From sequence record SRR22947727_95: 64,000 nt of DNA, one strand, 5' to 3'. The notes beneath the pieces were generated by a model. That model made no database searches. It saw only the letters and a list, made by a program, of their open reading frames with translations, and had not been told where the DNA came from. Below are positions 7,396-56,349 of the stretch, in pieces (within the stretch, counting starts at the first letter, position 1; each line of letters starts with the position of its first letter). Position numbers and translations under genes: made by a program.

Positions 7396-7766
7396 AGTGT
7401 CGTAGGGCCTATAAGCCGGGTTCTGTATCTGCTAATGCAGTGATGATCATTCCTCTAGAAGCATTATTACTAATACTTTCAAGCGACACACCCGAACAGC
7501 GATGATAAAGCACATCACATGCTGTTCCTATTTGGTCTTGCTCCAGATGGGGTTTACCATGCCGCTAAAGTTACCTTCAACGCGGTGCGCTCTTACCGCA
7601 CCCTTTCAGCTTTTCCTAGGCTTGCCTAGGTAGTTTTCTTTCTGTGGCACTATCCCTAAACTGACACATGTGTATCAATTTGCCGGGCGTTACCCGGCAT
7701 CCTGCTTTATTGGAGCCCGGACTTTCCTCGAATAATTAATACTCGCGATCACCCAACCCTACGACA
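7396..7766 (-). ncRNA. rnpB: RNase P RNA, bacterial type A
   Basis: Minus strand has GAGGAAAGTCCGGGCTCC near the 5' end, AGTGCCACAGAAA internally and ACAGAACCCGGCTTATAGGCCC near the 3' end. P1 is formed by GTCGTAGGG/CCCTACGAC. Usual position upstream of mraZ. Confidence 0.97.
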
Positions 7767-25004: not shown

Positions 25005-26321
25005 ATGAAATATGTATTCACAGTATTCGCAATGATATTTGCTGTATTCTTATACACCTCATCAAGCTTAAATAAAACAGCCATTGCATTCGACGGGAAA
25101 ACTTACAAAGACGCTTTTGAACAACTTGACTTATTTGCTGATGTCTTAGCACGAGTAAATAATGATTATGTCGTAGATATAAACAACACTGAATTAATAA
25201 GTGAAGCCATCAATGGAATGTTACTCTCATTAGATCCACACTCTTCTTATATAAGTCCCAAAGAATACAAAAACTTACTAATTTCTACATCAGGTGAATA
25301 CAGTGGACTAGGTATGGAAGTAACTTTGGATGAGGGCTTTGTAAAAGTTATTAGTCCTATCGATGATACCCCAGCAAAAAAAGCTGGGATTAAGCCTGGT
25401 GACTTCATTATAGAAATAAATGATGAAAGCATATTTGGGCTATCACTTTCAGAGGCTGTAGACTTAATGCGAGGAAAGCCAGGAGAGCTTGTAAACATAA
25501 CTATAGCCAGAAATAATGATGAGAGAATACAGTTCAATCTAAAGCGTGAAATAATTAAACGAAAAATGGTAACGTACAGCATAAAAGAAGGGATAGGCTA
25601 TATACGTATTTCCCAATTTAATGAAAATGCTTACCAAGAGCTTAGTAAAGCTATATCCTCATTAGAAAAAGAAATGTTTGGAAGTGTTCCAGGTTTAATA
25701 TTAGATCTTCGTGGCAACCCAGGTGGATTATTAGATCAGTCTATTAAAATAAGCTCAGCTTTTTTAGATGGAGGCAAAGTAGTTTCAACTAAAGGCAGAA
25801 AAGAAAGCGATAATAGAAACTATAATGCTGATAAAGGTGAATTACTAAAGGAAGTACCTATAATTATTTTGATTGATGAGGGCTCTGCATCTGCCTCAGA
25901 AATAGTTGCAGGGGCAATTCAAGACCGCAAGCGTGGACTAATAGTAGGTATGAAATCATTTGGTAAAGGGTCAGTACAATCTATAATACCACTAAAAGGC
26001 GGAGCAGAGGGTGCAATTAAACTAACAACACAGCGCTATTATACTCCATCGGGAAAATCTATACAAGGAAAGGGTATAACACCAAATATATTAATCGGTT
26101 ATTTTCCTGAGGATTTAAAAAAGAAAGAAAGAAAAAAAGAGGCAGATTTACCAAACACTTTACCTATTGAAACAGGAGAGCATCAAGCAGAATCTGAAGA
26201 AATAATGCCAATAGATTATCCACCCAATGGATTTAAGATAGATAGTGATTATCAATTAAAACGTTCTGTTGAAATCCTTAAAAGCGAGACATATGCTGAT
26301 AAACTCGATAGTTCTACTTAA
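25005..26321 (+). CDS. ctpA: S41 carboxy-terminal processing protease CtpA
   Basis: LDPHS, PDZ (GLGMEV), DLRGNPGG, catalytic SASASEI and SFGKGSVQ. Confidence 0.93.
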   Translation: MKYVFTVFAMIFAVFLYTSSSLNKTAIAFDGKTYKDAFEQLDLFADVLARVNNDYVVDINNTELISEAINGMLLSLDPHSSYISPKEYKNLLISTSGEYSGLGMEVTLDEGFVKVISPIDDTPAKKAGIKPGDFIIEINDESIFGLSLSEAVDLMRGKPGELVNITIARNNDERIQFNLKREIIKRKMVTYSIKEGIGYIRISQFNENAYQELSKAISSLEKEMFGSVPGLILDLRGNPGGLLDQSIKISSAFLDGGKVVSTKGRKESDNRNYNADKGELLKEVPIIILIDEGSASASEIVAGAIQDRKRGLIVGMKSFGKGSVQSIIPLKGGAEGAIKLTTQRYYTPSGKSIQGKGITPNILIGYFPEDLKKKERKKEADLPNTLPIETGEHQAESEEIMPIDYPPNGFKIDSDYQLKRSVEILKSETYADKLDSST

Positions 26322-36740: not shown

Positions 36741-37364
36741 ATGTCTTTAGAGCTTTGGCTGGCCTTGGTTGCTTTATTTGGTGTTGGCGGTTTGACACCC
36801 GGACCAGCAGTAATGTTGGTTATGTCTTCTTCATTTAGATTTGGTTTCAAGTCAGCAATGCTTCCTGCATTTGGCATAGCCAGTGCCAATGTTGTATGGC
36901 TTTTGATGGCTGCTACTGGGGCTGCCATTCTAGCAACAAAATTTCCTAATGCATTTATGATTTTAAAAGGCGTAGGGTTCTTGGTAATATTATACCTTGC
37001 ATTATCAGCTATTTTTGGTCCTCTACCAGATACGAATGCTAAAATTAATAATGCACCTCGTAAGAAAAATTTATACTCTAAAGGCCTTGCATTACAATTA
37101 TCCAGTCCAATGCCTCTGGTTTATTTTGGACTTCTCTTACCAAACTATTTTGATACGTCCTACTCATTAAAAAGCCAAGTTTTAATAATGTTTCTAACAG
37201 TAACTATCACCGAACTCATTGGGTTGAGTGTGTATGCTTATTGTGCCGACAAAATAAGACATTGGTTAAAACAAACTTGGTCAGCAAGAGTCTTTAATAT
37301 TCTAATTGGGCTTATAATGATTGCATCTGGAGTATGGGCTTTAATGTCTACAACTGAATTTTAA
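36741..37364 (+). CDS. LysE/RhtB family translocator
   Basis: LTPGPAV motif, about 6 TM segments. Confidence 0.88.
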   Translation: MSLELWLALVALFGVGGLTPGPAVMLVMSSSFRFGFKSAMLPAFGIASANVVWLLMAATGAAILATKFPNAFMILKGVGFLVILYLALSAIFGPLPDTNAKINNAPRKKNLYSKGLALQLSSPMPLVYFGLLLPNYFDTSYSLKSQVLIMFLTVTITELIGLSVYAYCADKIRHWLKQTWSARVFNILIGLIMIASGVWALMSTTEF

Positions 37365-37431
37365 ATATTGTATTTGATACTAAAAAAGCTAAAGCAACAC
37401 AAATGATCAAATAACTGCAAGATAAGTTTAA

Positions 37432-37959
37432 ATGAATATAAATAATATATCCTCAGGGATAAACCCTCCAAATGACATTAATGTAATAATTGAAGTGCCC
37501 CTAGGAGGGGAACCTATAAAGTATGAGATGGATAAAGACTCAGGTGCAATGTTTGTTGATCGGTTTCTTTACACTGCGATGCGGTATCCATGTAATTATG
37601 GCTTCATACCACATACATTATCAGACGATGGCGACCCGACTGACGTCCTTGTGGTTGGTAACAGGGCTTTAATGCCAGGCTCTGTGATCAGAGCAAGGCC
37701 AATTGGAGTTTTAATGATGGAAGACGAAGCTGGTATAGATGAAAAAATCATAGCTGTACCACACCAAAAATTAACGAAGTACTATGATTTAATTCAAGAT
37801 TACACTGATTTACCTCAATTAATGCAGGACAGAATTCCACATTTTTTTGAACATTACAAAGACTTGGAACCTGACAAATGGGTTAAAATTCTAGGTTGGG
37901 AAACAAGAGAAAAAGCTCATGATTTGATTGAAAAAGGCATAATAGCCTTTACGCGCTAA
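37432..37959 (+). CDS. ppa: Soluble inorganic pyrophosphatase (family I)
   Basis: [35 protein letters not shown]. Confidence 0.97.
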
Positions 37960-38056
37960 ACAACCACTCATTATACTTTATTGAACATTTAGTCTAATCT
38001 ATCAAAATAAGACTCTTGATTATAACTCTTAATTGCTTAAAGAGAACTTATTAACC

Positions 38057-38147
38057 GCGAGGGGAAGCGTTTATCTATTAAAGGTATTCGGCCAACTTTA
38101 CTTTAGCGAGGGGAAGCGATTGTTTGTTTAAAACAGCCGGCCAACTT
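38057..38147 (+). ncRNA. Tandem structured leader motif (two 42-nt units), candidate orphan riboswitch upstream of hppA
   Basis: GCGAGGGGAAGCG-N19-CGGCCAACTT at 38057-38098 and 38106-38147. The 19-nt spacers differ but both form hairpins. Confidence 0.6.
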
Positions 38148-38198
38148 CATTACATATGCACCGTTGAATACGGTCTTAACTATTAGGAGAGAGTAAAA

Positions 38199-40295
38199 AT
38201 GACTCTTAATCTTATCATAGCAGCGGGATTACTCGCTGTGATTTATGGTATCATAACTCGAGCAAGCTTAATGAAAGCTTCAACCGGTAATGAACGAATG
38301 AATGAAATTGCGGGGGCAATTCAAGAAGGAGCGAAAGCATACTTAAACAAACAGTATAAAACTATAGCAATAGTTGGTGTTGCTGTAACAATTTTACTTT
38401 ATTTATTATTTCAAAACGCAATAGCCCCTATTGGTTTTGTTTTAGGTGCCGTTTTATCAGGTATAGCTGGCTATGTTGGAATGCTTGTATCCGTTCAAGC
38501 GAATGTTCGTACTACTGAAGCTTCTCGAGAGAGTTTAGGCTCAGGACTTAATGTAGCATTTAAAGCTGGCGCAATAACAGGAATGCTTGTTGCAGGATTA
38601 GCTCTGCTAGGACTATCAGGATACTACATGGTTCTAACTGGTCCTATGGAAGCAGATGCACGTGGCATAATTGATGGGTTGGTTTCTCTTTCACTTGGCG
38701 CCTCACTAATTTCAGTATTCGCCAGATTAGGAGGAGGAATATTTACTAAAGGAGCCGATGTTGGTGGTGATTTAGTGGGTAAGGTAGAAGCAGGAATTCC
38801 CGAAGACGATCCACGGAATCCAGCCACTATAGCGGATAATGTTGGTGATAATGTTGGTGATTGCGCAGGTATGGCCGCAGACTTATTTGAAACATATGTT
38901 GTGACAATTGCTGCAACCATGGTTCTCGGTTCAATACTATTTGCAAGTATTGAAACATTAAAACTATATCCAATGGCAATAGCAGCTTCTTGTATAGTAA
39001 CATCAATTATCGGTACATATTTTGTTAAACTCGGTAAAAACTCTACAAATGTTATGGGGGCTTTGTACAAGGGTCTGATAGCAACTGGTGTACTATCCGC
39101 AGCTGCTATATATATCGTCACACGCCATACAATCGGTCTAGGAGAAATTGAAGGTACTAGCTTCTCTGGAATGGATCTTTTCTTTTGCTCAATAATTGGC
39201 TTAATAATAACTGGTGCTATTGTTGTAGTTACAGAGTACTATACAGGAGTTAACTATCGTCCAGTAAAATCTGTTGCAGCTGCATCAGAGTCTGGTCATG
39301 GCACCAATGTTATCCAAGGTCTTGCAGTATCTATGGAGGCTACAGCAGTGCCTGTATTAATTATTGTTTTTGGTATAATTGGAACATATGCTTTAGCTGA
39401 TCTTTACGGCATCGCAATAGCGGTTACTGCTATGCTGGGCGTCGCCGGCATGATAGTTGCTCTCGATGCTTTCGGACCTGTAACTGATAATGCAGGCGGT
39501 ATTGCTGAAATGGCAGAGCTTCCCTCAGAGGTCAGGAACACTACTGATACTTTAGATGCGGTAGGTAATACAACAAAAGCTGTAACCAAAGGTTATGCGA
39601 TTGCGTCAGCTGGTTTGGGAGCTTTAGTATTATTCGCAGCTTACTATAAAGATGTTGAGTATTTTGCATCCAAAGCAATAGAAGGTTCCTTTTTCTATGG
39701 ATTAGATACATTGCAATTTAGTTTAACAAATCCATATGTTATTGTAGGCTTGTTCATTGGTGGTCTTTTACCATATCTATTTGGTGCATGGGCTATGCAG
39801 TCAGTAGGTCGCGCTGCTAGTGCAATCGTTGAAGAAGTTAGACGCCAATTTAAGGCTGATCCAGGCATTATGAAAGGTACTTCGCGACCAGATTATGCAA
39901 AAGCGGTCGACTTACTAACTGGTGCTGCGATTAAAGAAATGATTAAGCCTTCATTGCTACCAATCCTTGCGCCAATCGTTCTATTTTTTGCTGTAAAACT
40001 GATGGCAGGCAATGCGGCGGCTGTTGAAGCTTTAGGAGCAATGCTTCTGGGTGTTATTGTTACTGGTTTATTTGTTGCGCTCTCCATGACTGCCGGTGGC
40101 GGTGCTTGGGATAACGCCAAGAAATATATCGAAGACGGCAATCACGGCGGAAAAGGCTCTGATGCTCATAAAGCATCAGTGACAGGAGATACTGTAGGAG
40201 ACCCCTATAAAGATACTGCGGGACCAGCTGTGAATCCGATGATAAAGATAACAAATATCATTGCTCTTCTTTTATTAGCTGTATTAGCTCATTAG
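38199..40295 (+). CDS. hppA: Membrane-bound proton-translocating pyrophosphatase, K+-independent type
   Basis: [49 protein letters not shown] (Lys = K+-independent), [10 protein letters not shown]. Confidence 0.96.
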
Positions 40296-56094: not shown

Positions 56095-56280
56095 CGCTGT
56101 CCTTGAAACCTGAGAGATTCACCTAAATACTAACACTAGCAATAGGCTTACTCCGTCGGTGGAAAATAATACTAAATTTCACTTTCCAGCGTTTTAAAAA
56201 ATAAGCGGTCCATTTTACCTGAGAGTTTCCGGTGGCGGTTGCTCCTTCGGTGGCGGATTAATTCGCACTCTCCCGCTTAT
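56095..56280 (-). ncRNA. Tandem glycine riboswitch
   Basis: Minus strand aptamer 1 (56280-56201): ATAAGCGGGAGAG...CACCGAAGGAGCAA...AAACTCTCAGGTAAAATGGACCGCTTAT. Aptamer 2 (about 56191-56095): GCTGGAAAG...CACCGACGGAGTAA...AATCTCTCAGGTTTCAAGGACAGC. Directly upstream of gcvT. Confidence 0.96.
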
Positions 56281-56349
56281 TAATATTAAAATAAAATTAG
56301 ACGTTAGAAATTACATGTCAATAAGTAATTTTAAACATTAGACTACTTC

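Follow-up and report, generated by a model that had tools for sequence, protein, structure and literature searches.

The leader of hppA in a 64,000-nt stretch of sequence record SRR22947727_95 (hereafter the window, meaning that whole stretch) bears two tandem copies of a small structured module, and the resulting element is conserved in marine bacteria of Hellea, Litorimonas and Algimonas. Algimonas is placed in the Robiginitomaculaceae in PMC11556061. In every checkable case the element is tightly and exclusively linked to hppA, which encodes a membrane-bound pyrophosphatase; it is absent from Rfam and from the papers searched, and its layout is that of tandem aptamers outside the known families. 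It is very probably a structured cis-acting RNA, and the best explanation, to which we assign a probability of about 0.5, is a lineage-restricted tandem riboswitch for a small ligand that switches hppA translation on. According to this model, the hppA mRNA leader would contain two tandem copies of one aptamer-like module. When the gene-proximal module is folded and liganded, its basal stem (P1) would hold the sequence CUUC, whereas in the unliganded state CUUC and the bases following it would pair with the purine run of the Shine-Dalgarno (SD) sequence and close the ribosome-binding site or, in some genera, would pair with the start codon instead. Ligand binding would turn hppA translation on, and module 1 would add cooperativity or stability. 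The features in the window are located as follows:

38016-38021 (+), putative -35 box TTGATT, kept upstream in relatives as TTG[ACT]
38038-38043 (+), putative weak -10-like hexamer TAAAGA, placed by its spacing from the -35 box
~38047-38052 (+), predicted transcription start, from the -35/-10 spacing, 5-10 nt before module 1
38050-38058 (+), 5′ flank, ATTAACC (kept in the Hellea group) and then the invariant GC before P1
38059-38099 (+), module 1, with P1 formed by 38059-62 and 38096-99 (GAGG:CUUU)
38063-67 and 38091-95 (+), module 1 internal loop, GGAAG opposite GCCAA
38070-38088 (+), module 1 P2 hairpin, next to the clamp C68-G90 and G69-C89
38100-38107 (+), inter-module linker ACTTTAGC, in relatives 7-11 nt and variable except for the final GC
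38108-38148 (+), module 2, with P1 formed by 38108-11 and 38145-48 (GAGG:CUUC)
38112-16 and 38140-44 (+), module 2 internal loop, GGAAG opposite GCCAA
38119-38137 (+), module 2 P2 hairpin, next to the clamp C117-G139 and G118-C138
38160-38174 (+), P3 hairpin ACCGT-TGAAT-ACGGT of the putative expression platform, present in the minimum free energy (MFE) fold
38175-38198 (+), ribosome-binding region, in which CUUAA (38175-79) can pair with UUAGG (38183-87)
38185-38193 (+), SD sequence AGGAGAGAG
38199-40295 (+), hppA, open reading frame (ORF) for the membrane-bound pyrophosphatase of 698 aa, with its ATG at 38199
37432-37959 (+), ppa, soluble inorganic diphosphatase (NCBIfam NF002317, 286 bits), directly upstream and given for context only

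Direct reading and a repeat finder agree with the first-pass annotation of this DNA on two 42-nt units (38057-38098 and 38106-38147) with a start-to-start period of 49 nt, both made of an identical 13-nt 5′ block GCGAGGGGAAGCG and an identical 10-nt 3′ block CGGCCAACTT, and on 19-nt spacers which differ between the units (whole-unit identity 76%) and are both predicted to fold into a hairpin. The unit ends given there were one base short each, because the P1 pairs 38059-62/38096-99 and 38108-11/38145-48 carry the units to 38099 and 38148. Its proposal that the 5′ block partly pairs with the 3′ block holds for GAGG with CUUY, but GGAAG and GCCAA are unpaired and face each other as an internal loop. 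Each module is composed of a 4-bp P1 (GAGG:CUUY), the internal loop GGAAG/GCCAA, a C-G/G-C clamp and the variable hairpin P2, in the register 5′-GC, P1, GGAAG, CG, hairpin P2, CG, GCCAA, P1′, A-3′, and the module 2 unit folds into its assigned stems when taken in isolation. The 13-mer GCGAGGGGAAGCG is found twice in the window against 0.19 matches expected by chance (2/100 shuffles reach 2) and has no third site there even with 2 mismatches, while the 10-mer CGGCCAACTT alone is not rare (4 matches with at most 1 mismatch, 2.58 expected in the window). In the nearest genome, G001, which has 87% of sampled words in common with the window, the 13-mer occurs with at most 1 mismatch at three sites, two of them inside the hppA leader. 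The hairpin at 38160-38174 and the ribosome-binding AGGAG at 38185-38189 lie where they had been described, and at the P3 position relatives carry a hairpin of varying sequence and length.

The fold is supported by covariation in relatives, which were compared on a MAFFT alignment (A1) and on an alignment of 84 distinct sequences fitted to a covariance model (A2), the latter leaning towards the model. P2 varies from 8 to 45 nt in the species set and from 67 to ~105 nt in two metagenome loci. When inserts of 8-45 nt are compared with shuffled versions, P2 folds better in module 1 (mean z -2.46, 66/67 below 0) and in module 2 (mean z -2.71, 67/67 below 0). On A1, 86.5% of P2 cells pair against 77.4% in shuffles, with a covariation score of 0.313 against 0.146, a value reached by none of 500 shuffles, and sliding the partner by 1-3 columns as a control reduces pairing to only 38-48% of cells. 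Pairing on A2 amounts to 88.1% of cells versus 76.8%. The first P2 pairs switch among C-G, U-A, G-C and A-U with few mismatches; the very first is CG in 28 sequences, UA in 27, UG in 7 and AU in 2, and is unpaired in 3/67. P1 of module 1 covaries across genera as well (GAGG/CUUC, GAAG/CUUC, GGGG/CUCC, GAGG/UCUC, CUGG/CCUG), the form GGGG/CUCC being present in 5 loci of two genera, and in A2 its columns 12-89 hold AU 75, GC 6 and GU 1 and its columns 13-88 AU 45, GU 32 and GC 7. P1 of module 2 is always GAGG/CUUC apart from GAAG in 2 sequences, and its third pair is G-U in 82/84 sequences of A2. The folded strand is the hppA sense strand, because these G-U pairs would be C-A mismatches on the opposite one. 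A conserved aptamer fold with covariation, which is expected of a riboswitch, is present in both P2 and in P1 of module 1.

Unlike the stems, the internal loops hardly vary. All ten loop bases are invariant in 84/84 distinct sequences for module 2 and in 83/84 for module 1, equally so in loci found through the protein or the covariance model, although in the 68 loci of a DNA pattern scan this invariance is partly built in, because the pattern fixed much of the core. The CGC immediately 5′ of P1 is invariant too (84/84). Only one leader has a differing module 1 loop, L132 (345-455, minus strand), with GAAAG/ACCAG and an intact module 2; its module 1 may be decaying, or its three changes may be linked. 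The number of modules is usually two, but three were found in L092 (the same as G091:C31; 3247-3439, minus strand), where they stand in series and the third begins with GUGAGGGGAAGCG, and one in the metagenome locus L156 (278-403, plus strand), which has a 67-nt P2 insert and a P1 of GGGG/CUUC. The longest P2 insert, ~105 nt, is located in module 1 of another metagenome locus, L154 (177-357, plus strand). SD-like words (GGGA/GGAG) in P2 loops were considered as a further feature and rejected, since their enrichment is at most mild (34 in module 1 against 26.2 +/- 3.8 in shuffles, 25 in module 2 against 22.0 +/- 3.7).

Concerning distribution, all figures are samples and absence applies to the genomes searched. 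A protein-first search found hppA in 40/41 relatives; the tandem element lay upstream in 16/16 hppA loci with at least 85% N-terminal identity and available upstream DNA, and in 0/15 loci with 67% identity or less. The DNA pattern scan, with one genome per species, gave its 68 loci in Hellea, Litorimonas and Algimonas and in metagenome-assembled genomes labelled Caulobacterales, Maricaulaceae, Hyphomonadaceae, Alphaproteobacteria and Pseudomonadota. The hppA N-terminus follows the element by 121-255 nt in 77/82 loci, the other 5 ending before it. Covariance model R1 found one full match per genome in 49/151 genomes of the window's family, belonging to 8/26 genera, and the order-level search with covariance models gave matches confined to that family (0/120 genomes of five sister families), while G001 was the only match in a class-wide sample of 151 genomes. 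Among metagenome hppA loci, the element precedes 9/9 with at least 85% identity and 0/71 with 57-66%. A dispersed repeat of the repetitive extragenic palindrome type was rejected, as each of the 49/49 positive genomes has a single covariance-model locus. One weak match (21.3 bits, genome G067) is spurious, because it falls inside a 258-aa ORF on the opposite strand, away from hppA.

How the element could act on translation is suggested by the sequence between its last module and the hppA start. No terminator-like site was detected there in the window, which fits translational control, and downstream of the last module three leader types can be distinguished, called after Hellea, Litorimonas and Algimonas. 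In the Hellea type, CUUCAUAA (the 3′ strand of P1 and four more bases) is complementary to UUAUG(G/A)GG at -20 to -10, and the helix covers the first half of the SD sequence GGGGAGAG. In the Litorimonas type, the start codon (-5 to +4) is spanned by a helix of UCAUAACA with UGUUAUGA. In the Algimonas type, CUUCAG pairs with CUGAGG inside the conserved CUGAGGGAGAC, which precedes the AUG by 33-56 nt, a hairpin lying in between. It is the third module that bears the anti-SD helix (CUUCAAUU:AAUUGAGG) in the three-module leader L092. The complementarity is kept by compensatory variants (AUU:AAU, AUUAU:AUAAU, AGAAA:UUUUU and AUG:CAU, and in L092, behind its third module, AAUU:AAUU). By a strict count, in 46/80 unique leaders a G[AG][AG]G site pairs with the whole 4-nt 3′ strand of the last P1 and with the next 2-5 nt, 37 of these 46 sites being 5-25 nt before the AUG, and the pair at +2 is U:A in 34, G:C in 7, G:U in 2, U:G in 2 and A:U in 1. 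The alternative helix was scored anchored at this junction, replacing RNAduplex z-scores against shuffled queries, which came out weak (mean z -0.87), as the purine run is a partner for any CU-rich query. The native helix has a mean of 7.35 pairs, compared with 5.47 for tails exchanged between leaders and 5.41 for shuffled ones, and exceeds the swapped mean in 73/80 leaders, although the swap control overstates independence, because 53/80 leaders are related and have the same tail AUAA. CUUC cannot sit in P1 and in the anti-SD helix together, so that a folded module 2 would free the ribosome-binding site, and control through competition between the two helices is rather likely.

A transcription start just before module 1 would place the element in the 5′ untranslated region (UTR) of hppA. 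The box TTG[ACT] is found 38-45 nt upstream of P1 in 86/86 unique leaders and is followed after ~16-17 nt by boxes of the TTACAA, TTGCAA or GTCACA type, which we take to resemble an alphaproteobacterial -10 element. A TTGAY box conserved at this distance argues that the element would lie at the mRNA 5′ end. In two loci, L018 and L032, ~45-50 nt separate the end of the upstream gene's terminator from the motif, a gap in which only the TTG[ACT] promoter has room. The promoter named in the first-pass annotation stands as far as TTGATT at 38016-38021 is concerned, a putative -35 box kept at a fixed distance, but it was missed by a sigma-70 scan.

Several points weigh against the riboswitch reading, besides the built-in share of the loop invariance and the relatedness of the swapped leaders. 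The sigma-70 consensus scan of the window and three relatives reported no promoter at the proposed site and flagged TTTACG-18-TATACT at 37948-37977 instead. In metatranscriptome data (four runs of one study, as contigs in which starts are not visible), one contig runs unbroken over 37300-38800, from ppa through the leader into hppA, which may reflect read-through from ppa or DNA in the libraries. The anti-SD helix is missing in 34/80 leaders, including that of the window (L001) and those of its two closest relatives, L068 and L070, of the same AT-rich subclade. The MFE fold of the window pairs 38190-97 with 38097-38104 (the 3′ strand of module 1 P1 and the linker) and also holds the CUUAA:UUAGG hairpin (38175-79 with 38183-87), but these two pairings are local and have no sequence variation in the subclade. 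In predicted stability the window leader does not surpass its shuffles (z +1.34), nor do its single units (z +0.63 and -0.30). A full P1 appears in the MFE fold of 3/81 leaders for module 1 and of 6/81 for module 2, and enforcing both modules leads to a median of 4.8 kcal/mol above the MFE. Nearest-neighbour energies penalise the 5x5 loop, and it is likely that this conserved loop is ordered beyond the energy model or requires a ligand, although such an explanation is an excuse and not evidence. Finally, invariant loops and a copy number that varies from one (L156) to three (L092/G091) suit protein operators too.

The main rival to the riboswitch is an RNA-binding protein, a reading we regard as possible though clearly the weaker of the two. 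The modules would be mRNA operator sites for a lineage-specific protein, perhaps a dimer whose subunits each take one module, which would repress or activate hppA translation and for which the invariant internal loop would perhaps be the recognition surface. Loops that are invariant while stems covary are also the pattern of internal loops bound by proteins, a module number of 1 to 3 suits an operator, and the narrow spread (the 8/26 genera of one family) fits a lineage-specific protein, as does the finding that RNA folding by itself does not favour the modules. Because the loops never vary, comparison cannot separate ligand from protein binding, and the competition between P1 and the anti-SD helix suits either effector and does not discriminate between them. 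On the other side, no candidate protein is known and the gene neighbours of hppA are not conserved, and autoregulation is implausible for a gene whose product is a membrane pump. Among GGA-binding regulators CsrA is the obvious one, but it was rejected as effector, given that PF02599 was found in 0/5 motif-bearing genomes (97-99% complete) against 3/14 controls. The chances that the effector is a small molecule or an ion are about even.

A constitutive structural leader that senses nothing, serving as a 5′ stabiliser against RNases or as a folding or standby platform which tunes translation of a membrane protein that is difficult to express, appears improbable. The element would start ~10 nt or less from the predicted 5′ end, which is the usual place of stabilising stem-loops, and its 5′ strands are SD-like (GAGGGGAAG). 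A stabiliser, however, requires stems and not ten invariant unpaired bases per module; the loop bases persist in genera with hppA N-termini up to ~20% apart, a standby site would have no use for GCCAA, the 3′ loop strand, and compensatory change keeps the last P1 strand complementary to the SD sequence or start codon, which points to alternative states. Direct repeats acting as double-stranded DNA, as transcription-factor sites just downstream of the promoter, are very improbable in spite of the identical 13-bp and 10-bp blocks just 3′ of a conserved -35 box, since the blocks stand 8 to ~105 bp apart within a unit, the inserts keep their hairpin potential by compensatory changes, and P1 covariation and G-U pairs are meaningless in DNA.

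We return to the tandem riboswitch reading and its place among known RNAs. The 4227 models of Rfam 15 were searched at gathering score over the whole window, where only RNase P RNA, one glycine aptamer and Rp_sR47 were reported and none at the element, and at E<=10 over 37900-38300, where only psRNA6 (11.7 bits, E 0.5) and the S15 leader (11.2 bits, E 4.9) appeared, both far under their cut-offs and at chance level. The models of the Na+ (DUF1646 motif), Li+ (nhaA-I) and fluoride (crcB) riboswitches gave no match at 37900-38300 even at E<=10. No paper tying hppA to an RNA element was found in a literature search that left supplements and most subscription journals outside; the one paper that mentions both hppA and a riboswitch is a proteome study of Pelagibacter under sulfur limitation, none of the papers listed for Hellea and Litorimonas mentioned a riboswitch, and no title or abstract listed for pyrophosphate riboswitches was about hppA or free PPi. 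Of what the first-pass annotation had proposed on the letters alone, the analysis supports an RNA-level element on the hppA sense strand (covarying stems, G-U pairs) with an invariant core and a variable hairpin in two copies, as in tandem aptamers. It belongs to no Rfam family, and the three ion motifs, which that annotation did not recognise in it, gave no match. The conservation and covariation it had advised looking for in relatives were both found around hppA-linked copies, and its cis-regulatory RNA reading stands in so far as it concerns structure, the hppA link and, in most relatives, a potentially competing helix over the SD sequence or start codon.

The tandem glycine riboswitch is similar in that a single gene is preceded by two homologous aptamer-like domains placed one after the other, that singlet as well as tandem forms occur, and that a conserved core goes with varying peripheral stems. 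It does not match in sequence or structure, and differs in its gene association, in any ligand and in its three-way junction, the hppA module being a stem-loop-stem, and its model had no match in 37900-38300. The NAD+ class I riboswitch (nadA motif) has two tandem similar stem/internal-bulge/stem domains of ~40-50 nt in the 5′ UTR, an arrangement much like ours, and its first domain grips the ADP diphosphate through Mg2+, which would be a precedent for RNA-pyrophosphate recognition. There was no Rfam match to it, the hppA element has GGAAG/GCCAA in place of a C-rich bulge, and lineage and regulated gene are different. Guanidine-II (mini-ykkC) consists of tandem hairpins whose conserved terminal loops (ACGR) dock onto each other, and resembles the hppA element in that two small similar hairpin modules jointly act on the SD sequence, but in the hppA modules the terminal loops vary and the conserved bases lie in the internal loop, again with no Rfam match. 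The Na+ (DUF1646), Li+ (nhaA-I) and fluoride (crcB) riboswitches are likewise structured leaders of membrane ion-transport genes, but they too lack an Rfam match here, and the hppA product has the signature of a K+-independent H+ pump and not of an Na+ pump. Leaders bound by CsrA/RsmA also have several GGA sites in the 5′ UTR, one of them at the SD sequence; these, however, lie in the loops of hairpins, with no need for a conserved strand opposite them.

The product of hppA matches NCBIfam NF001951 (1115.9 bits) and TIGR01104 V_PPase, and contains Lys 12.46 and Thr 12.49 within the signature GNTT(K/A)xx(T/G/A)KG, in a numbering that was aligned by eye. In PMC10897367, K12.46/T12.49 marks K+-independent enzymes, known only among H+-PPases, and by this signature the product would be a K+-independent H+-PPase. 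The name of the best NCBIfam model, 'sodium-translocating pyrophosphatase', conflicts with the Lys/Thr signature, and is probably a generic and misleading label. A K+-independent H+ pump lends no special support to Na+ or K+ sensing, and with an ON logic the natural guess would be a signal of low energy or the substrate, Mg-pyrophosphate (Mg-PPi). In Rhodospirillum rubrum, hppA is induced when the cells are short of energy or under salt stress. PPi, as Mg-PPi, may be put forward as the ligand, though we hold this doubtful, and a shade more doubtful is the complete scenario of a first natural PPi riboswitch, in which two cooperative aptamers would sense rising Mg-PPi and turn on hppA translation. 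If true, the energy of PPi would be harvested by the proton-pumping pyrophosphatase and not wasted via the neighbouring soluble enzyme.

The regulation of membrane pyrophosphatases in bacteria is poorly understood, and the element is a compact and very well-defined orphan candidate, in which each module has ten invariant loop bases, the covariation is clean and the expression platform can be read. As there are cultured bacteria that carry it (Hellea balneolensis DSM 19091 and the type strains of Litorimonas and Algimonas), the sensing question is directly testable. Should the ligand be PPi or an energy-state signal, a new riboswitch class would be at hand that shows how a cell chooses between wasting and conserving the energy of PPi; should a protein bind, it would be a new RNA-protein regulatory pair in Caulobacterales.

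Some minor observations concern the surroundings of the leader. In the window ppa and hppA adjoin on the same strand, an arrangement also found in several close relatives, whereas in other genomes the end of a bacterioferritin-like gene lies upstream of hppA instead of ppa. The 3′ part of the SD sequence, GAGAGU (38189-38194), is complementary to ACUCUU in codons 2-3 (38202-38207), which leaves the AUG in a 7-nt loop. This GAGAG...CUCU complementarity recurs in most relatives, and may either add another level of control over translation or simply follow from conserved Thr-Leu codons. An imperfect inverted repeat, CTCTTAA-TTGC-TTAAAGAG, is located at 38026-38045 across the promoter spacer and the -10 region; its portion ACTCTTAAT recurs at 38202-38210, and this was seen only in the AT-rich Hellea subclade. 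Elsewhere in the window, all on the minus strand, the Rfam search reported a glycine riboswitch aptamer at 56196-56285 (63.7 bits, gathering score 32) as a single aptamer, an Rp_sR47 (Rickettsia sRNA47) match at 25707-26008 (60.3 bits, gathering score 60), which, in a genome of the Hellea group, is a chance hit at the borderline or else an alphaproteobacterial RNA of wider occurrence, and a full-length bacterial RNase P RNA of class A at 7396-7764 (297 bits).

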